A stretch of 64,000 nucleotides of DNA. Source: Gemmatimonadaceae bacterium (GTDB lineage Bacteria; Gemmatimonadota; Gemmatimonadetes; Gemmatimonadales; Gemmatimonadaceae). Within the stretch, counting starts at the first letter, position 1. Each line of letters opens with the position of its first letter. Shown piece by piece: positions 52,337-60,632 of this stretch. The stretch is from contig JBJMOW010000005.1 in assembly GCA_045803545.1 (NCBI GenBank), positions 1,312,001 through 1,376,000 on the forward strand, in the 5' to 3' direction. Position numbers and translations under genes: made by a program. Below the pieces are notes generated by a model, which worked only from the letters and a program-made list of their open reading frames with translations, was not told where the DNA came from and searched no databases.

Positions 52337-52888
52337 ATGAGACCCAACCTCCTTTGCGCTACCGTCGCAGTCGTGACCATCTCGGCTTCCACTCTGCCAG
52401 CTCAAGCTCGCGCGACCGCTGATGCAAACAGCAGCGCTATCGCCGCTTCGTTCAGCAAATTCAAAAGCCTGAGCAAGGAAAAGCGCGGCATCAAGAAAGA
52501 GAAATATCTGAAGGTGGAGAGCAAGCCCGCGGTTCTTGCGAATCCCGCCGACTATTCAGGCGCGTACGAAGTCCCCGACCTGCACATGCGTCTCGAGCTC
52601 AACGTGAAGAGCGACGGAAGTTTCACCGGCACCGGATACGAGCAGATCAGTGACGGCGTGATGCGCGAGTTCTCTCTTCGCGACGGCAGGATCGATCGTG
52701 CGTTCGCCACTGCGACCAAGGTCTACGCCAATGCGACGGAGACCTTTCAGGGTGCATTCATGAATCGGTCGACGTACGAGAGCCCGACCGACAAAGGTGT
52801 AACCGTCTTCGGTCTTGGCACCATCGGACGCGCGATTTACGTCGACGGAAATACCTTCGACAGATTCTTTTTCCAGAAGTTGCCCTAG
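52337..52888 (+). CDS. Hypothetical exported beta-rich protein
   Basis: Signal peptide; Lys-rich segment, then 'YSGAY' and beta strands. Confidence 0.65.
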   Translation: MRPNLLCATVAVVTISASTLPAQARATADANSSAIAASFSKFKSLSKEKRGIKKEKYLKVESKPAVLANPADYSGAYEVPDLHMRLELNVKSDGSFTGTGYEQISDGVMREFSLRDGRIDRAFATATKVYANATETFQGAFMNRSTYESPTDKGVTVFGLGTIGRAIYVDGNTFDRFFFQKLP

Positions 52889-53442: not shown

Positions 53443-53601
53443 TGGGACTTTCGGGTTGGCGGGTAGCTAACAGGCAACGACTTAACAATAGTAGCCCCGT
53501 TGAAGCTGACACCGATATTACAGTCTACGCAACGAGCAACATCGTTTCCTTGCGGGGCACATCAGTTGCCTTCAAAATGGAATACCTATTCGGAGGGAAC
53601 G

Positions 53602-54183
53602 GTGAGACTCCATACTCGCTATTTCGCGGCGTTGGTATGTGCAGTCGGGTTCCTCGCACTCGATTCTGCGTACGCTCAATCGACGGCGACGATCTGCAAA
53701 GACGGAACTACTTCGACGGCGTCAGGCCGCGGTGCGTGTTCCGGCCACGGCGGCGTCAGCAAGAAGGCAACGGCCAAAACGAAGGCCGTCGTCAAGAAAG
53801 AAGTGAAAGCAGCGAAGGTCGACGCCAAGGCGACCAACGGTTCTACAGTTGCCGTCGTGACCTGTGGCGACGGCACGACTTCGACCAACACTGGCCGTGG
53901 CGCATGCTCGCATCATGGCGGCGTCAGAGCAGCGACGACGAACTCGGCGACGACCGGTGCGGTTGTTCCTGCACCCGGAACAGCGGTAGCACCGCGCTCG
54001 CAGCGAGTGACGCGCGCCCCGGCGGCGACACGCGCGTCGGCGACGACGAGAGTTGGGTCCGGTGCCGCTGACGACAACGACCCGACGGGGGCGATCGCGC
54101 AGTGCAAGGACGGACTTTACTCGCATGCGAGAAACCACCGCGGAGCTTGCGGGCATCACGGCGGCGTCGCGACTTGGTTGTGA
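53602..54183 (+). CDS. Exported protein with three DUF3761-like Cys/His repeats
   Basis: GTG after GGAGG; three copies of 'C.DG..S....RGAC..HGGV'. Confidence 0.85.
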   Translation: MRLHTRYFAALVCAVGFLALDSAYAQSTATICKDGTTSTASGRGACSGHGGVSKKATAKTKAVVKKEVKAAKVDAKATNGSTVAVVTCGDGTTSTNTGRGACSHHGGVRAATTNSATTGAVVPAPGTAVAPRSQRVTRAPAATRASATTRVGSGAADDNDPTGAIAQCKDGLYSHARNHRGACGHHGGVATWL

Positions 54184-54211
54184 GGGAAGGTTGGGCACTG
54201 CTCGCCTACGA

Positions 54212-54316
54212 TTAACGCGGTAAGGGGTGAGAAGTAGCGAAGGTGCCAGGAACCAGGTTGGCTGCGAGCTTCCTGGTATCAGGTGCCTATGCTGCTCTCA
54301 CCCCTTACCGCGTTAA
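54212..54316. repeat. Palindromic element with 21-bp perfect terminal inverted repeats
   Basis: TTAACGCGGTAAGGGGTGAGA (54212-54232) / TCTCACCCCTTACCGCGTTAA (54296-54316); inner CCAGGAA/TTCCTGG. Confidence 0.85.
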
Positions 54317-54387
54317 CCATAAAGTGGCTATTCACTCCTCGCAGCTGCCGCTCGAACCTGGGAGCGGCCGTTTGTCGTAAGGCCATT

Positions 54388-55680
54388 ATGCCCAAATACG
54401 CTCTCGCTCTCTGCCTCGTCGCGGTAAGCTGTTCACCGCATAGTAGCACCTCCTCCCGCCTCCCCCCTTCCGCCTCCCGCACCATCGAGATTCGCAACGG
54501 CCAATGGTTCGACGGCACCAGGTTCGTCGATCGCACGATGTACAGCGTCGATGGATTCTTTGCGGAGAACAAACCGCCGCGCGTGGATACGGTGATCGAC
54601 CTGCAGCACGGCTATGTCGTTCCGCCGTTCGCTGAAGCGCACAATCACAACGTCGATGCAACGACTGCGGCTGCAGCTCGCGTCGTGGTCGACAAGTATT
54701 TCCGCGACGGCGTCTTCTACGTTCAGAATCCAGCCAACGTGCTTCGCGCGCGCTCGGGCCTCGTCGGTTTCATCAACGTTCCGACCGGCATCGACGCCAC
54801 TTTTGCCAACGCCGCTCTCACCGGTCCCGGTGGTCATCCGATGGGCTTGTTCCTTCGCAACCTCGGCCGCGGTGCGATGGTCGCGACGGACAGCAATTCG
54901 ACGAGCGGGTTTTTGTGGACGATTGCCGATCGCGGCGATCTGGATCGTAAATGGCCGCAGATCCTCGCCAGCCATCCGGACTTCATCAAGACCATGCTTC
55001 TCTACTCGGAGGAATACGAGCGGAGAAAATCTGATAGTGCATTCTTCAACTGGCGCGGGCTGAACCCGGCACTGTTACCCGAGATCGTTCGTCGCGCGCA
55101 TGCGGCCGGATTGCGAGTGATGACTCACATCGAAACTGCCGCCGATTTCCGCAATGCAGTCATCGCCGGCGTCGATCAGATCGGTCACACGCCTGGATTC
55201 AGAGGAAACGCGAAAACCCAGCTTCCTGACTTCGCTCCGTTTTTGATGACTGATGCCGACGCGGAGCTCGCCGCGAAGCGAGGCGTATTTGTCATTACCA
55301 CTCTCAGTGGGCCAGATGGTTTGCCCGATACCGGCCTCCTCGCGCGCTTCATCAAGCTCGACTCGCTCAACCTGGCGATGATGAAAAAGCATCACGTGAA
55401 GGTCATCGTCGGTAGCGATTCATATCGCACCACGTCGGTACCCGAAGCGATGTGGCTCTCGAAACTCGGCGTGCTCACCAACGCGGAGCTCCTGCGCGCG
55501 TGGACCGACGAAACCGCCCACGCAATCTTCCCGCAGCGGAAGATCGGCAAGCTTGCTCGCGGATACGAAGCGAGCCTCCTGGTGCTCGCCGGTGATCCGA
55601 TCGCCGATTTCAGCAATGTGAGGCGCATCGTGCTACGCATGAAACAGGGACAGCTGATTCAGGTCGCGGCAACGCCGTGA
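54388..55680 (+). CDS. Amidohydrolase family lipoprotein
   Basis: Lipobox AVSC; 'P...EAHNH', 'HIE', 'GSD', 'G.L..GYEA....L.GDP'. Confidence 0.85.
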   Translation: MPKYALALCLVAVSCSPHSSTSSRLPPSASRTIEIRNGQWFDGTRFVDRTMYSVDGFFAENKPPRVDTVIDLQHGYVVPPFAEAHNHNVDATTAAAARVVVDKYFRDGVFYVQNPANVLRARSGLVGFINVPTGIDATFANAALTGPGGHPMGLFLRNLGRGAMVATDSNSTSGFLWTIADRGDLDRKWPQILASHPDFIKTMLLYSEEYERRKSDSAFFNWRGLNPALLPEIVRRAHAAGLRVMTHIETAADFRNAVIAGVDQIGHTPGFRGNAKTQLPDFAPFLMTDADAELAAKRGVFVITTLSGPDGLPDTGLLARFIKLDSLNLAMMKKHHVKVIVGSDSYRTTSVPEAMWLSKLGVLTNAELLRAWTDETAHAIFPQRKIGKLARGYEASLLVLAGDPIADFSNVRRIVLRMKQGQLIQVAATP

Positions 55681-55710
55681 CCGTCACGCAGGATGGGCAG
55701 TCGTAGGTAC

Positions 55711-56502
55711 ATGAAAACCCCTACCGCCTTCCTCGGTGCGCTGTTCGTCGTAATCGCAGCGCCACTCCTGTCTCAGAGCACTCCGCTATCTCCCCAGCAA
55801 GCCTCGAACGCTCAGGCCGCTGAGGCCGGGTATGTGTCGGCAATGCGGACCGATCTCAAGATGCTGGCGACGGCGGAGGAGGCGTACTTCGTCGATCACT
55901 CCGCCTATTATTCCGGGACGGTCAGTGCCGCGAATCCGCTCTTTGGTTTTTCACCATCCCGCGGTGTGACCATCAACGTGAGCGTCCCTGCCGGTGCTCC
56001 GATATGGAATGCCATTGCGATTCATGCCAGATCGCAGACAAGGTGCAGTTACAAACTGCCTGATCCGATCGAGTGTGCTTCGCCCACTGCCACCATCAGC
56101 GCCGGCGCAGCGGCAGCTGGCGACTCAACGGCCGTGGAGAACGCAACGGTCATCAAGGTCGGTGACGAACAGCCAGTCGGCATTCGGCCAGGACAAACGC
56201 GAAAGTGGATCTTTGACATTCCGTACGAACGCACCCGCTGCCTGGCGATGGGTCAGGTCGAGGTCCTTTCCGGTGGCGACAGAAATGTGAATGTGCTGAT
56301 CATGAACGAGATCGCGTACACCGAGTGGTCACACGATCAACCGGTGCGCACGGATTACGAGAGCAACGACAGGCCGCTGATTGCGTTCGACGTCAACATC
56401 AACGACCCGGGCCGCTACATGTTCGTCGTGTCCAATCGCTCATCGAAGTCCGCGGCGAAGGTTGTCCAGCTGCAGCACGTTACCGTCACCTGCGTCGAGT
56501 AG
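55711..56502 (+). CDS. Exported pilin-head-like domain fused to a beta-sandwich domain
   Basis: Sec-type signal; 'YVSAMRTDL...EEAY...GFS.S..VTI...W.A.A.H...C' aligns with the pilin at 58833-59198. Confidence 0.75.
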   Translation: MKTPTAFLGALFVVIAAPLLSQSTPLSPQQASNAQAAEAGYVSAMRTDLKMLATAEEAYFVDHSAYYSGTVSAANPLFGFSPSRGVTINVSVPAGAPIWNAIAIHARSQTRCSYKLPDPIECASPTATISAGAAAAGDSTAVENATVIKVGDEQPVGIRPGQTRKWIFDIPYERTRCLAMGQVEVLSGGDRNVNVLIMNEIAYTEWSHDQPVRTDYESNDRPLIAFDVNINDPGRYMFVVSNRSSKSAAKVVQLQHVTVTCVE

Positions 56503-56612
56503 GGCCGGAGTCAGCTGCACTACCGATTCGCGAGGCAAGGTTAGCAGCGGCGAGTCAGGTCGGGATGAGCGTCGGATTAGGAATGCGTGAAGATTCCTCT
56601 TAAAACTTTTGC

Positions 56613-56668
56613 TTGACGGCGGGCTCAAACTGTTTTATCGATTATCGATATTATCGATAGGCGATAAA
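56613..56668 (+). promoter_or_regulatory. Promoter/operator of the DUF2975-XRE operon
   Basis: TTGACG at 56613, then TTATCGAT three times (56635, 56642, 56651) and CGATAAA. Confidence 0.6.
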
Positions 56669-56669
56669 C

Positions 56670-57197
56670 ATGCCGGCCAGAATTCGTCCATCCGCAGCCC
56701 TTCCGATCGCGTACATGACGTTGCGGATTCTGATCGTCCTCAACTGGATAATCGGCATCTCGATCGTGGTGTTGCTGGTCGCGATGCCAACGAGGGAGTG
56801 GATCATCAGCGCGCTCGATCTCACTCCGTCGCCGCAAGCAGACCGGCTGATCCTGGGGCTGCAGGCAATCGGCGGACTCGGTGTCGTCGCGACACCGATC
56901 AACGATATTGTACTCAAGCGACTGCTCGCGATGGTCAGGACCGTCCGCGCGGGCGATCCGTTCGTCGCCGCAAACGCATATCGGTTGCAGACAATCGCGT
57001 GGGCGCTGCTCGCGCTGCAGATACTCAGCCTCATCATCGGCGGCATCGCCAAGCACGTCTCGACACGCGAGCATCCGCTACATATCAGTGCCGGCTTCTC
57101 GATCAATGGCTGGCTCGCCGTCCTCCTGACGTTCCTGCTGGCGCGCGTCTTTGCCGAAGGCACGCTGATGCGCGAAGATCTCGAATGGACAGTTTGA
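56670..57197 (+). CDS. DUF2975 membrane protein
   Basis: Four TMs; 'GDPF...NA.RL', 'LARVF.EG..MRE.L..TV'. Confidence 0.9.
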   Translation: MPARIRPSAALPIAYMTLRILIVLNWIIGISIVVLLVAMPTREWIISALDLTPSPQADRLILGLQAIGGLGVVATPINDIVLKRLLAMVRTVRAGDPFVAANAYRLQTIAWALLALQILSLIIGGIAKHVSTREHPLHISAGFSINGWLAVLLTFLLARVFAEGTLMREDLEWTV

Positions 57198-57198
57198 C

Positions 57199-57438
57199 AT
57201 GGCGATCACCGTCAAACTCGACGACCTGCTCTACGAACGGCGGATGACCCTGACCGAGCTCGCGGACCGCGTCGACATGACTCTCGCCAACCTGTCCATT
57301 CTCAAAACCGGCAAAGCCCGCGCGATCCGTTTTTCGACGCTCGAGGCGATATGTGAAGTGCTCGACTGCCAGCCAGGCGACATTCTGCGGTTTGCATCGG
57401 AAAAGTCCGCAGCAAAAAAACGCCGCGCGAGTGCTTGA
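57199..57438 (+). CDS. XRE/Cro-C1 HTH regulator (YozG-like)
   Basis: 'MTLTELA...NLSILKTGKARAIRFSTL.AIC..L.CQPGDIL'. Confidence 0.93.
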   Translation: MAITVKLDDLLYERRMTLTELADRVDMTLANLSILKTGKARAIRFSTLEAICEVLDCQPGDILRFASEKSAAKKRRASA

Positions 57439-57475
57439 TCCTACCGCCTCCGCCTCCCTCCTCCTCCTCCCGGCC

Positions 57476-57865
57476 ATGAAACGCAACATTACTTTGACCG
57501 TCACGTCAGTACTTTCGGCCCTGCTCTTCATCAGTCATTGGGTCGATGAGATCTCCCGCGGCTTCGAGCCGGGCACCAGGCAAGGCATCGGTGGGATCGG
57601 GATCCTTGTCGTGTGGCTCTGCGGACCACTGCTACTTGGCACACGACGAGCTGGATACGTACTCATGTTCGTCGCCGGACTCTTTGGGTTTGCCGTTCTT
57701 TTCCTTCACATGGGCGGCAGAGGAATGGTGGGTGGCAGGATCGCCAATACCAGCGGGCAATTCTTCTGGGTCTGGACCCTCATCATGCTCGGGACCATGT
57801 CGGCTATTTCCGCGATCATCGCCGCGTACGAGCTATGGAGTCAGCGACGGATCGCCAGAGGATAA
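57476..57865 (+). CDS. Hypothetical four-TM membrane protein
   Basis: Hydrophobic segments with 'SHW.D' and 'LHM'. Confidence 0.65.
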   Translation: MKRNITLTVTSVLSALLFISHWVDEISRGFEPGTRQGIGGIGILVVWLCGPLLLGTRRAGYVLMFVAGLFGFAVLFLHMGGRGMVGGRIANTSGQFFWVWTLIMLGTMSAISAIIAAYELWSQRRIARG

Positions 57866-57901
57866 TCGTCCGGGTTCCGCGCGCTGCTATCGAACGGATC
57901 T

Positions 57902-58696
57902 CTAGCGCGAAGAGCAATCGACGGATCGCTCGCGGGCGCTATCCGGCAACATTTGCGCTGCGAACAGCCTAAGACCGGTAACAACCTCGCGATACAAGAC
58001 GAAGTCGAGATCGGCGACGGTGCCTCGAACCTCGCGCTGATTGATCAGCGACAGAAAGTCACACGTCGACAACCAGGTTGTCGCCCTGCGCTTGACGTGA
58101 GCCTCTTTGATCTCAGGCAGCCGGAAAGAGTCTTGAATCCGGGCATCGGCACCCCGCCTGCTGTGACCCGCGCGCGAAGTCGAGTCGATTTCGATTCCTT
58201 GCGAAAGCGAAAGAAAGTGTTGCGGCGAGTGCTCACCGAGGTCGAGGGTCATGGTTCGGTGCGCGATATCGAACCGGCTTTCCGAAGTAACGTCGATGTA
58301 CTCATCAGAATCGAGCCTCACGCTGATCGTGTCCGGAACGCGCGAAGCAATTCGACCAGCAAACACGTAGCTCGCGGAGATTGTGTGCACCGTCGGCCTC
58401 GAGAAAAAGACGCGGTGCAGAAAGTCGCGTTTACCGAGCGGCGCGGTATAACTCGCGGTTGTCTTGTTGAGCACGCTGTCGAAGTCGTAAGTGATCTCGC
58501 CAGCAAATACGTCGATCGGACCGGCAGGTAGCGACACGCGTTGCTGGTCATTTTCATCGGGGCTCGCGCAGACTCGCCTCCACGGAGTCAAAACCATCGC
58601 AATCAGGACAATATTGATCGCGACGACTGCGACACCATGCTGCGTTTGAGCCCATGCGCGATTTGCGAGCATTGGCTTGGGGGACGGGTTGATCAT
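57902..58696 (-). CDS. Hypothetical membrane-anchored protein
   Basis: One N-terminal hydrophobic segment; start uncertain. Confidence 0.5.
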   Translation of the reverse strand: MINPSPKPMLANRAWAQTQHGVAVVAINIVLIAMVLTPWRRVCASPDENDQQRVSLPAGPIDVFAGEITYDFDSVLNKTTASYTAPLGKRDFLHRVFFSRPTVHTISASYVFAGRIASRVPDTISVRLDSDEYIDVTSESRFDIAHRTMTLDLGEHSPQHFLSLSQGIEIDSTSRAGHSRRGADARIQDSFRLPEIKEAHVKRRATTWLSTCDFLSLINQREVRGTVADLDFVLYREVVTGLRLFAAQMLPDSARERSVDCSSR

Positions 58697-58770
58697 CGGT
58701 ACTGCCGGAATGGGATTCCGTCAATACTCAACCAGCTTACAAGGGACCCCTGGTGCTGGTCCCCGACTCA

Positions 58771-58810
58771 CGAGAAACAAAAAACCCGGGAGACGATCCC
58801 GGGTTTCTCG
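58771..58810 (-). terminator. Rho-independent terminator of the pilin gene
   Basis: Minus strand AAACCCGGGA-tcgtc-TCCCGGGTTTTTTG. Confidence 0.85.
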
Positions 58811-58832
58811 TTCCAATCTGTTAGTCGTTGGA

Positions 58833-59198
58833 TCAGGTGCAGGCGATCACACCGTTGATCATCGAACACGTCTTGGCGGACTGCGAGTGCGTCGCGGTCG
58901 CGCTCCATGACGGAGGCGGGCCGGCAACTGCGGTCACAACGATCGTGACGTTCGAAGAAGCGCTAAAACCCTGCAGCGGAGCCGCGGAGGTCGCGGTTCC
59001 CGAGAAGTACGCGCCCTGGTTGTCAGCGGCATACTGCTCTTCATACGTAGCAACGTTACGAAGGTCCGACTTCATCGCAGCGACGTAAGCCTTGTCCTTC
59101 GTGTTGGCGAACTTCGGAATCGCGATCGCGGCAAGAATACCGATAATCACGACTACGATCAAAAGCTCGATCAGGGTGAAGCCTTTTTTGTTTGACAC
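58833..59198 (-). CDS. pilA: Type IV pilin (prepilin with class III signal)
   Basis: GTG start after AGGAG; KKG|FTLIELLIVVVIIGILAAIAIP; C-terminal Cys pair; own terminator. Confidence 0.9.
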   Translation of the reverse strand: MSNKKGFTLIELLIVVVIIGILAAIAIPKFANTKDKAYVAAMKSDLRNVATYEEQYAADNQGAYFSGTATSAAPLQGFSASSNVTIVVTAVAGPPPSWSATATHSQSAKTCSMINGVIACT

Positions 59199-59444
59199 GC
59201 TAATTCTCCTGCAGCGGTTGGATTGCGATAACCAATAACATGGCTATTTCACTACATAGACTCCTAAGGGTTTACCCCGGTAAAACGGGTGGCGGGACCG
59301 AGTTAAGCCCCTGAATCCGGACCTGCGGCGGAGGAATGGGGCCCTTAAGTCGCGATCTGCGAACTTCGGTTGCACAACGCAACGCAGTTCCTGCGAGTGC
59401 ATTGCGTGGTACTTTTTACCGAATCACCGGAAGGAGAAGGAGCA

Positions 59445-60632
59445 ATGGATGGCAGTAGTGTCCCAGCGAATCACGTCTCACGTGCGCTCGCGTGCGTTGT
59501 CGCACTTTCCCTCAGCGGCTGCGCAGCCGCCTCTCGATCGAGCTCCCCAACCATGAGTCAAAGCGTTGACTCGGTAGCCTTCGGCACTCTCGCGAATGGA
59601 CAAGGCGCACGGCTCTTCACGCTGCGCAATGCGCACGGCATCGAGATGCAGTTTACCAACTACGGCGGGATCATCACCTCACTCAAAACTCCCGACCGCA
59701 GCGGTCATTTCTCGGACATAGTTCTCGGCTATGACAATCTCGCCGGTTACGTTGCGAGCTCACCGTACTTCGGCGCGATCGTGGGGCGCTACGCGAATCG
59801 CATCGCCCGCGGGCACTTCACGCTCGATGGCGCGACGTACACACTCGCTGTCAACAACGGCCCCAATAGTCTGCACGGTGGACTGCGCGGCTTCGACAAG
59901 GTCGTCTGGAACGCGCGGCCGTTCCGGAATCAGGAAGGAGACGGTGTTGCGCTGGACTACACCAGCCCAAACGGCGAGGAAGGCTATCCAGGCACTCTGC
60001 GCACCACCGTGACCTATACGCTGACGCCCGACGATCGATTGATCGTTGATTACCTGGCGACGACGGACAAAGACACGCCAATCAATCTGTCACAGCATTC
60101 GTATTGGAACCTGGTCGGCAACGCATCGCGTGACATTCTCGGACACGTGCTTACGATCAATGCGGACGCGATCACGCCAGTTGATACGACGCTGATCCCG
60201 ACCGGCGAGATGATGCCCGTGCAGGGGACGCCGTTCGACTTCCGGAGCCCGCACGCCATTGGCGAGCGAGTCGATCAGCGACAGAACGCTCAGATTCGCT
60301 TTGGCAACGGCTATGATCACAACTTCGTGTTGAATCGCGGCGCTGCTGCCTCTGACGCACTCGTGTTGGCAGCGCGCGTGGTCGAGCCTACCTCTGGTCG
60401 GACGATGGACATCTCCACTACCGAACCGGGCATCCAGTTTTACTCCGGCAACTTTCTCGACGGTAGCATTACCGGCAAAGGCGGTGCTGTCTATCACTTC
60501 CGATACGGTCTGGCGCTCGAGACACAGCATTATCCGGATTCACCGAACCATCCGAACTTTCCCTCCACGATTCTGCGTCCGGGACAACAGTATCGGTCAC
60601 GCACCGTCTTCAAGTTTGGAGTGACGCAATGA
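59445..60632 (+). CDS. galM: Aldose 1-epimerase (mutarotase) with lipoprotein-like signal
   Basis: 'GRYANRI', 'LHGG', 'EEGYPG', 'HSYWNL', 'GYDHN', 'LETQH.PDSPN'; lipobox LSGC. Confidence 0.93.
   Translation: MDGSSVPANHVSRALACVVALSLSGCAAASRSSSPTMSQSVDSVAFGTLANGQGARLFTLRNAHGIEMQFTNYGGIITSLKTPDRSGHFSDIVLGYDNLAGYVASSPYFGAIVGRYANRIARGHFTLDGATYTLAVNNGPNSLHGGLRGFDKVVWNARPFRNQEGDGVALDYTSPNGEEGYPGTLRTTVTYTLTPDDRLIVDYLATTDKDTPINLSQHSYWNLVGNASRDILGHVLTINADAITPVDTTLIPTGEMMPVQGTPFDFRSPHAIGERVDQRQNAQIRFGNGYDHNFVLNRGAAASDALVLAARVVEPTSGRTMDISTTEPGIQFYSGNFLDGSITGKGGAVYHFRYGLALETQHYPDSPNHPNFPSTILRPGQQYRSRTVFKFGVTQ

Follow-up and report, generated by a model that had tools for sequence, protein, structure and literature searches.

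The locus described here raises the question of what use a soil bacterium can make of a type IV pilin head that lacks the parts by which pilins enter a filament. The window, by which we mean the whole analysed stretch of 64,000 nucleotides (Gemmatimonadaceae bacterium, assembly GCA_045803545.1, contig JBJMOW010000005.1, positions 1,312,001 to 1,376,000 of the forward strand), carries at 55711..56502 (+) a gene for a precursor of 263 amino acids (aa) plus stop codon. In its product, a pilin-like head stands behind a Sec-type signal and is joined by a linker to a beta-sandwich; we refer to the fusion gene and the fusion protein. The original prediction had taken the protein for a soluble mimic of the "cognate" type IV pilin encoded nearby. 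We find that the fusion protein descends from a type IV pilin and can no longer be a pilus subunit. With a probability that we put at roughly 0.6, it is an exported protein that does not polymerise and serves for binding or as an adaptor, with a domesticated pilin head as its basis.

A pilin head behind a Sec-type signal

BLASTP aligns residues 34-113 of the fusion protein with residues 31-112 of the neighbouring pilin (39/82 identities, 48%; 53/82 positives; 2 gaps; E 8e-20), which agrees well with the manual count of about 38 identities in 75 positions that had first been given. The type IV pilin globular head extends over residues 34-125 (55810..56085, +) and comprises an alpha1-C helix, an antiparallel sheet and a D-region loop from C112 to C122. 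In the AlphaFold2 (AF2) model, computed on an alignment of 40 family members (alignment A1) and reaching a mean predicted local distance difference test score (pLDDT) of 78.1, the helix covers residues 28-63 and the strands residues 69-123, with pLDDT values of ~82-92 over residues 41-120. The predicted alpha1-C helix on a four-stranded antiparallel sheet is the arrangement of a pilin globular head. A fold search (VIA) returned PilA4 (6xxd, Z 10.0, root-mean-square deviation (rmsd) 3.2, 96 residues aligned), followed by PilV (5v23, Z 9.1), TTHA1222 (5g2f, Z 8.2) and, at Z 7.7-7.9, ComP, PilE and others. The pilin fold that had been expected for the head was thus recovered.

The cysteine pair is kept, as had been noted: C112 and C122 are invariant in 40 of 40 members, align with the pilin pair and enclose a D-region with a putative disulfide. 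The loop itself reads CSYKLPDPIEC in the fusion protein versus CSMINGVIAC or CDMTNGVITC in pilins. Within the family, conservation of the head peaks in the alpha1-C helix, with a mean pairwise identity of 0.78, and in the D-region, with 0.67. In true pilins the alpha1-C helix is the packing face and the D-region is the variable exposed loop. The strong conservation of these two parts suggests that the head has a fixed partner.

The N-terminus is not that of a prepilin. The fusion protein has no match to Pfam N_methyl, the class III signal defined by N_methyl and TIGR02532 is absent from all 40 members, and G-1, F+1, E+5 and the long hydrophobic alpha1-N (~20-25 residues) are missing from every family member examined. 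The 18 homolog N-termini that were inspected are all Sec-like, none of them with a class III leader. Residues 1-21 (55711..55773, +) form a predicted Sec-type signal peptide with K2, the hydrophobic core AFLGALFVVIAAPLL and L-L-S before the predicted cut; residues 22-33 (55774..55809, +) comprise the Gln that is predicted to become the new N-terminus (Q22, invariant in 40/40) and a variable spacer. A Lys or Arg at position 2-3 and a pre-segment of 21-24 residues occur in 38 of the 40 members, and all 40 have Gly, Ala or Ser at -1 and Leu, Ala, Val or Met at -3 from the invariant Gln. By this pattern count, the family has the positive n-region, the hydrophobic core and the small residues at -1 and -3 of signals for Sec and signal peptidase I. 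The signal region shows the lowest identity of the 40-member alignment (0.31), residues 22-37 have a mean pairwise identity of 0.37, and the signal segment is modelled at a pLDDT below 50. We infer from these patterns a Sec/signal peptidase I signal that is cleaved before Q22, in agreement with the earlier view that leader and alpha1-N have been replaced by a Sec-type signal.

The listed open reading frame (ORF) runs from 55693 to 56502. Homologs begin at the second ATG, 55711 (MKT...), and the in-frame ATG further upstream at 55693 is probably not used as a start. The amidohydrolase ORF upstream has its stop at 55680, which leaves 12 bases to 55693, no GFTLIE-like peptide is present in any frame of 55561-55862, and the two other frames are closed by several stops. 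There is therefore no room for a hidden leader before the fusion gene, and a prepilin leader lost from view by a frameshift is ruled out.

It might be argued that the hydrophobic stretch is a decayed class III signal plus alpha1-N that is never cleaved, so that the protein would stay tethered to the membrane and would possibly be handled as a non-canonical pilin. Met1 and the conserved YVSAM are 40 residues apart in the fusion protein and 37 in the pilin, F7 of the window protein sits at the position of pilin F+1, and the family profile aligns with pilin alpha1-N from position 10 onward. The spacing suggests that a class III signal decayed in place and so gave rise to the Sec signal. However, the hydrophobic core has only ~14-16 residues, contains a Pro and is followed by a small-x-small|Q site that is conserved in 40/40 members; G-1 and E+5 are absent from all members and F7 is not conserved. 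The low identity of the signal and its ratio of nonsynonymous to synonymous substitution rates (dN/dS) of 0.41-0.73 are typical of cleaved signals, and we consider an uncleaved anchor highly improbable.

A Gln after signal-like N-termini is common in this genome. In 129 of 633 crude signal candidates (20%) Gln is the first non-hydrophobic residue after the core, versus 3.1% Gln overall, with a crude filter that includes membrane proteins. Examples within the window are the ORFs starting at 52337, 60629, 51394 and 53500. This resembles the "Q-rule", which the portion of PMC5837995 that we draw on describes as specific to Bacteroidetes and not to the whole Fibrobacteres-Chlorobi-Bacteroidetes (FCB) group.

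A GOLD-type domain at the C-terminus

Head and C-terminal domain are connected by a flexible low-complexity linker (residues 126-145; 56086..56145, +), of which residues 126-142 are modelled as disordered at a pLDDT below 50. Measured from C122 to G151, the linker has 22-51 aa across the family (Ala 18%, Pro 17%, Ser 12%, Thr 11%) and a mean identity of only 0.30. The C-terminal domain is a GOLD-type beta-sandwich at residues 146-263 (56146..56499, +; modelled over residues 146-262) with the invariant cysteines C177 and C261. The "Ala linker" and "two-Cys beta domain" of the original prediction are recognised in these segments, the linker being of Ala/Pro/Ser/Thr type and the sandwich now being assigned to GOLD.

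This assignment comes from the fold search. The best match is the GOLD domain of p24beta1 (5azw_B, Z 12.1, rmsd 1.7, 92/93 residues; VIA), followed by supernatant protein factor (1o6u, Z 11.5), p24gamma2 (5gu5, Z 11.3) and TMED1 (7rrm, Z 10.9). Generic sandwiches such as PliG, pre-peptidase C-terminal domains and carbohydrate-binding modules (CBMs) rank lower, at Z 9 or below. The top Foldseek matches are p24 GOLD domains as well (5gu5, E 2.3e-5). The GOLD beta-sandwich fold is found in the models of both the fusion protein and a 443-aa paralog that is described below.

At the sequence level the relationship is distant. The window protein scores 15.1 bits (E 0.025) against the Pfam family PF01105 (EMP24_GP25L), below the cut-off of 25.9 bits, and is therefore not filed under this family. 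A genome search with PF01105 gave 15.5 bits, with no match over the cut-off in 14 control genomes; among the 40 family members, six have weak matches. A C-domain profile (A2) built from seq­uences of seven proteins matches 1045 representative proteins at E <= 0.001, of which 191 reach E <= 1e-10. Two of these relatives, P0110 (36.5 bits; profile A2 E 1.5e-19) and P0113 (35.6 bits; 3.9e-19), pass PF01105, and these intermediates support the fold match at the level of sequence. Judged by its model, the C-domain is of GOLD type and distantly related to GOLD domains, but it is not a member of the Pfam family.

The fusion is an unnamed family under purifying selection

A search of a large protein collection (E <= 0.001) gave 73 matches, of which 68 cover at least 86% of the query at 43-92% identity and five are shorter pieces. 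Where names are given, these are "hypothetical protein", from Gemmatimonadaceae metagenome-assembled genomes (MAGs), or the automatic "PilE" of the Joint Genome Institute (JGI). From the ESM Atlas, nothing beyond the protein's own cluster was obtained (126 members, Gemmatimonadota). Alignment A1 has 41 invariant columns, including Q22, C112/C122 and C177/C261. The fusion protein belongs to no Pfam, NCBIfam or PADLOC family, and its paralog likewise has no NCBIfam or PADLOC family. Full-text searches of the literature outside subscription journals yielded no account of a protein that combines a pilin head with Sec signal and GOLD domain, nor of bacterial GOLD-domain families. The "GOLD domains" of the Tiamat preprint refer to a figure colour and not to a protein domain.

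Our genome collection yielded 138 relatives. Among the 80 that were kept, only five loci (L013-L017) span both domains, at 47-64% identity. For the five ortholog pairs formed by the window and L013-L017, dN/dS (Nei-Gojobori) is 0.16-0.30 for the head and 0.14-0.31 for the GOLD domain, compared with 0.39-0.67 for the linker and the 0.41-0.73 already given for the signal; in the pair of window and L013, dS is saturated in head and linker and yields no ratio there. Both modules are under purifying selection.

These data leave practically no room for the view that the ORF arose by chance, is a pseudogene or stems from a chimeric assembly, and nothing was seen that would favour it. A non-functional gene is refuted by the 68 near full-length homologs, by the five loci in other assemblies and by the low dN/dS; the two-domain fold is predicted with confidence, and parts of the gene also appear in DNA contigs from independent soil runs. 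The fusion is thus neither a frameshift product nor a one-off, the two ways in which the original prediction could have failed at this point. One DNA contig, from soil run X3, joins position 55702 to 56502 and skips 799 letters, a gap that coincides closely with the fusion ORF; its shorter side has 32 letters. It may come from a relative that lacks the fusion gene or has a diverged copy.

The neighbouring pilin is one of many paralogs

The neighbouring gene (58833..59198, -) codes for a type IV major pilin of 121 aa with the leader MSNKKG|FTLIE. It is a genuine prepilin, with 39.7 bits against N_methyl (cut-off 21.2) and a match to TIGR02532. Fusion (+) and pilin (-) are convergent and 2.3 kb apart, a distance that had been given correctly, with four ORFs between them. 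In the genome (3.70 Mb, 6 contigs), a scan for the leader pattern found 11 intact major-pilin-type genes, which are scattered. Besides the window copy they are located, in the contig numbering of this genome (G000), at C1:4593-4946, C2:18749-19108, C2:729645-729995, C2:1168842-1169192, C3:32257-32607, C4:578262-578612, C4:644880-645278, C4:750492-750851, C4:1157990-1158340 and C4:1385986-1386336. A truncated copy was also seen at C4:577078-577302.

Nine of the 11 pilins are mutually 78-99% identical, and the neighbour is 81-95% identical to the eight others. To each of the nine, the fusion head shows 44-49% identity. It shares 48.7% over 78 residues with the neighbour and 48.1% with each of the pilins at C2:18749, C4:1157990 and C4:578262, which are indistinguishable from the neighbour in this respect. 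At the orthologous loci, none of the five (L013-L017) has a prepilin gene in the flanks, which were covered over more than 5 kb on each side for L013, L014 and L016, over 2.5 kb for L017 and over only ~1 kb downstream for L015; the prepilin motif also had no match in L002, the locus of the 443-aa paralog. The five related genomes nevertheless contain 9-13 matches each to the window pilin, the closer ones at 77-93% identity. Between these genomes the pilins (77-93%) are far better kept than the fusion orthologs (47-64%).

A quick maximum-likelihood tree (IQ-TREE) of 82 heads gives the same picture. A branch of 1.11 changes per site, with a support of 100 in the approximate likelihood-ratio test (aLRT), splits 39 pilins from 40 fusion heads; two unrelated minor pilins, L107_2 and L108_1, have long branches and determine where the drawing is rooted. 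The neighbour is a paralog of the type from which the head may be derived rather than a specific partner. It cannot be called cognate, being one of 11 paralogs and no closer than the rest, and the expectation that homologs would stay near their own pilin and co-evolve with it was not borne out. The missing pilin at the orthologous loci, the identity gap and the long branch argue against a mimic of the pilin surface, or a decoy, that would keep pace with its own pilin. A complex prediction for the mature fusion protein with the pilin head returned a score of 0.00 ("no answer"), which is evidence neither way.

One version of the mimic idea is a decoy for pilus-binding phages, in which a soluble pilin surface would soak up receptor-binding proteins. 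The protein is indeed pilin-derived and probably exported. However, a decoy should copy the exposed pilin surface, and yet the D-region loop is wholly different, the identity to pilins is below 50% and the head sits on a long separate branch. There is also no evident route past the periplasm, while phage tails meet pili outside the cell, and the added GOLD module would be left unexplained. We rate a phage decoy as barely probable.

Pilin copies group across genomes in the tree, and the paralogs must therefore be old. Some true prepilins with a GFTLIE leader share the helix signature "ATAEEAYF", which is invariant in the fusion family. Such prepilins were seen at L033, L035, L046, L064 and L068 (Gemmatimonadota), at L069, L081 and L088 (Bdellovibrionota and other MAGs) and at L090. 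The head may descend from a pilin of this "ATAEEAYF" type rather than from the type of the neighbour.

Leaderless heads and GOLD-type domains in other proteins

The same genome codes for a second leaderless-head protein, in which the head is again followed by a GOLD domain (443 aa; G000:C4:1451486-1452817, corresponding to L002 1495-2826, -). It is 31% identical to the fusion protein over both domains. Its head is 59-66% identical to the nine pilins and 46-51% to the two divergent ones, and groups with pilins in the tree. Its C-domain is again GOLD according to AF2 and fold search (Z 12.3), and this domain fills the fold match lists of the protein. The second family consists of 15 clusters. 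All six sequences that were examined have a Sec-type signal, a conserved domain of ~190 aa and then the head; the forms of 437-476 aa add a GOLD domain, the forms of 299-312 aa end directly after the second Cys of the head. The head has therefore been reused as a module. A third layout occurs in P0076, with a head-like region between two GOLD domains (head hidden Markov model (HMM), E 2.7e-5). Among 194 candidates searched for longer proteins with the fusion-type head, none was found at E <= 0.001, which is weak evidence.

The GOLD-like domain is found in a variety of architectures among 148 newly listed best representatives (P0074-P0221), none of which has a prepilin leader. In 61 of the 148, an N-terminal zinc-ribbon pattern is followed by a membrane span. 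Other layouts are tandem GOLD (P0074, P0079), SnoaL plus GOLD (P0149, P0162) and, with a transmembrane (TM) span in the middle, TIR-TM-GOLD (P0181; TIR_2 34 bits) and CHAT-TM-GOLD (P0209; 47 bits). By these predicted architectures, the GOLD-type domain is a promiscuous extracytoplasmic module beside which the pilin head has been recruited more than once. Its combination with a zinc ribbon, TIR or CHAT domain on the cytoplasmic side suggests a role in sensing or ligand binding, and its frequent place as the extracytoplasmic part of single-pass proteins points, by analogy, in the same direction for the fusion protein. Two further GOLD-like genes were seen in the window's own genome, at C4:1289903-1290205 (L123 5859-6623, -) and C2:84046-84396. 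The genomic context of the GOLD-like genes at L123 and L124 gave no clue.

The reuse of the head also bears on the idea of a pilus-tip or surface adhesin, or of a cargo of pilus secretion, with the head as a docking or secretion tag that would bring the GOLD domain to the pilus machinery or tip. The layout of pilin module, linker and functional module is that of the modular pilins, as far as these are characterised in the part of PMC8179133 used here, and heads occur before or after other exported domains. Against this, there is no alpha1-N by which the protein could be anchored in a filament, no known docking motif and no linkage to minor pilin genes. We regard this as very unlikely.

A broader proposal goes beyond the single protein. 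Leaderless heads could be an unrecognised class of modules that plug Sec-exported domains (GOLD, the 190-aa domain) into the pilus world, while GOLD would be an old bacterial sensor, possibly ancestral to the GOLD domains of eukaryotic p24 and Sec14L proteins. In that case the heads would be regulators in the periplasm, or tags by which the pilus machinery recognises proteins for docking or secretion, and some of the proteins with GOLD would couple it to a TIR or CHAT effector. We offer this as speculation and think it unlikely to hold in full.

Proposed function of the fusion protein

The reading that we prefer is that of a soluble binding or adaptor protein of the cell envelope. The precursor would cross the inner membrane through Sec and signal peptidase I would cut it before Q22, which may then cyclise. 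In the periplasm, the two invariant Cys pairs would form disulfides. The mature protein of ~25 kDa would be a soluble component of the periplasm or cell envelope; the fusion protein shows neither a lipobox nor a membrane anchor, and no sorting domain at its C-terminus. Since alpha1-N is absent, it would have no way to polymerise, as it could neither be extracted from the membrane nor stacked into a filament. The pilin head would serve as a domesticated binding or scaffold module and the GOLD-type module as a second binding module, with a conserved partner that is not the neighbouring pilin.

Several observations weigh against this reading. A full-length profile found no full-length match in 60 other genomes of the same taxonomic family, sampled as one per genus and including a same-genus genome that is 98% complete. 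These genomes match only in the head region (positions 10 to ~133), and the matches are pilins. The C-domain profile gave a GOLD-like match at E <= 1e-6 in five of 80 other genomes of the phylum, and three same-genus genomes lack a GOLD match strong enough for a fusion (best E 8e-14). The gene is missing from these sampled relatives and is therefore an accessory gene of a narrow lineage. There is no conserved operon around the fusion orthologs, the gene neighbourhoods of L013-L017 being different. Synteny is only partial: a gene resembling that of elongation factor G (EF-G) is common to window and L013 at 92% identity, and the upstream genes are unrelated. In the same comparison the fusion evolves faster than this conserved EF-G-like neighbour (64-67% versus 92% identity). 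Evidence for expression is thin and consists of one metatranscriptome contig of 180 bases over 56437-56616 with one mismatch; the two metatranscriptome runs cover mostly the conserved 5' part of the pilin gene, and gaps in their coverage carry no weight. A scan of 54000-59500 found no promoter-like site and eight terminator-like sites, where 5.1 are expected, and is uninformative. With 11 copies in 3.7 Mb, the chance of finding a pilin gene within 2.4 kb is only ~1-2%, so the local proximity is unusual and a local link keeps some probability, although the proximity is not conserved. Finally, the predicted template modelling score (pTM) of the fusion model is as low as 0.49, and the relative placement of head and GOLD domain is therefore not confidently predicted.

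A rival reading is that of a periplasmic modulator of type IV pilus dynamics. Here the soluble head would compete with membrane pilins for a surface of the machinery, candidates being the alignment complex, the secretin or a pilin-modifying enzyme, or would bind the growing fibre, and thus tune extension or retraction. The head is truly homologous to pilins and its alpha1-C face is conserved; besides the 11 pilin genes, the genome encodes a prepilin peptidase (peptidase A24), six T2SSE-type ATPases and one secretin. The heads of the second family are even 59-66% identical to nine major pilins, and the Bd0109 protein of Bdellovibrio may serve as a partial precedent, judged by what the consulted part of PMC3818213 says of it. 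On the other hand, linkage to pilus genes is missing at five of five orthologous loci, most sampled relatives lack the gene and still carry many pilin genes, and whereas the pilins keep 77-93% identity from genome to genome, the head shares only 44-49% with them. A modulator of this kind is conceivable but seems rather unlikely to us.

Other genes around the locus

Between fusion and pilin, the segment 56670-57438 (+) codes for a DUF2975 membrane protein (38.1 bits) directly followed by a Cro/C1-type regulator (HTH_26, 71.2 bits). Just downstream of the pilin and on the same strand lies an ORF of 264 aa with one membrane span (57902-58696, -), which belongs to no Pfam or NCBIfam family and has one paralog of 49% identity at G000:C4:1432063-1432740. 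On the other side of the fusion gene, 53500-54183 (+) codes for a secreted protein with DUF3761 repeats (three stretches, 60.3 bits). A secreted DUF3761 protein is also encoded near the 443-aa paralog (L002 3074-3547, +); its Cys/His-rich tail (...GxCxHHGGVxxWL) is similar to that of the 53500-54183 protein.

Comparison with known systems

What makes a protein a pilin is its class III signal together with alpha1-N; the head usually appears only as a decoration of the filament. With type IV pilins such as PilA4 (6xxd) and the window pilin, the fusion protein shares a homologous head, consisting of alpha1-C on an antiparallel sheet and a Cys-bounded C-terminal loop. Unlike them, it has no class III signal, no G-1/F+1/E+5, no alpha1-N, and it has an extra C-terminal domain. 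On the sequence evidence, its head is homologous to pilins, yet the protein as a whole does not qualify as one. The pilin head, here detached from the filament, retained by selection and used anew in two or more families of Sec-exported proteins, can thus work as a free-standing module, and in the fusion protein it is available for study in a natural form that is probably soluble. Should the head still recognise components of the pilus, these families would represent new type IV pilus accessory factors in a poorly studied soil phylum.

The modular pilins PilB and PilC of Streptococcus sanguinis, in which a functional module is grafted onto a pilin module (Raynaud et al. 2021, PMC8179133), have the same layout as the fusion protein with its head (34-125), linker (126-145) and GOLD domain (146-263). 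In the part of that paper on which we rely, modular pilins have the class III motif IPR012902 at the N-terminus as their defining feature and are displayed by the filament. The fusion protein lacks this motif and has a Sec/signal peptidase I-type signal instead. A functional parallel may be seen in Bd0109 of Bdellovibrio bacteriovorus, for which an action on type IVa pilus production has been proposed (Capeness et al. 2013, PMC3818213). According to the passages of this paper that we used, its pilin-like fold is a prediction of the authors and it is a protein of ~550 aa with YD repeats, unlike the 263-aa fusion protein; the comparison is made by the published description only.

The C-terminal module has the beta-sandwich fold of the eukaryotic p24/TMED and Sec14-like GOLD domains (PF01105; 5azw, 5gu5, 7rrm, 1o6u), a fold familiar chiefly from the Golgi of eukaryotes. 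Unlike these eukaryotic proteins, the fusion protein is bacterial and predicted to be periplasmic, it has no coiled coil, membrane span or coat protein (COP)-binding tail, and its Cys pair is found elsewhere, on the first long strand and the last strand. The module points to a large unannotated bacterial branch of GOLD domains, which bears on the origin of the eukaryotic ones, and the zinc ribbon, TIR or CHAT domains on the cytoplasmic side suggest that this branch may serve as an extracytoplasmic sensor.

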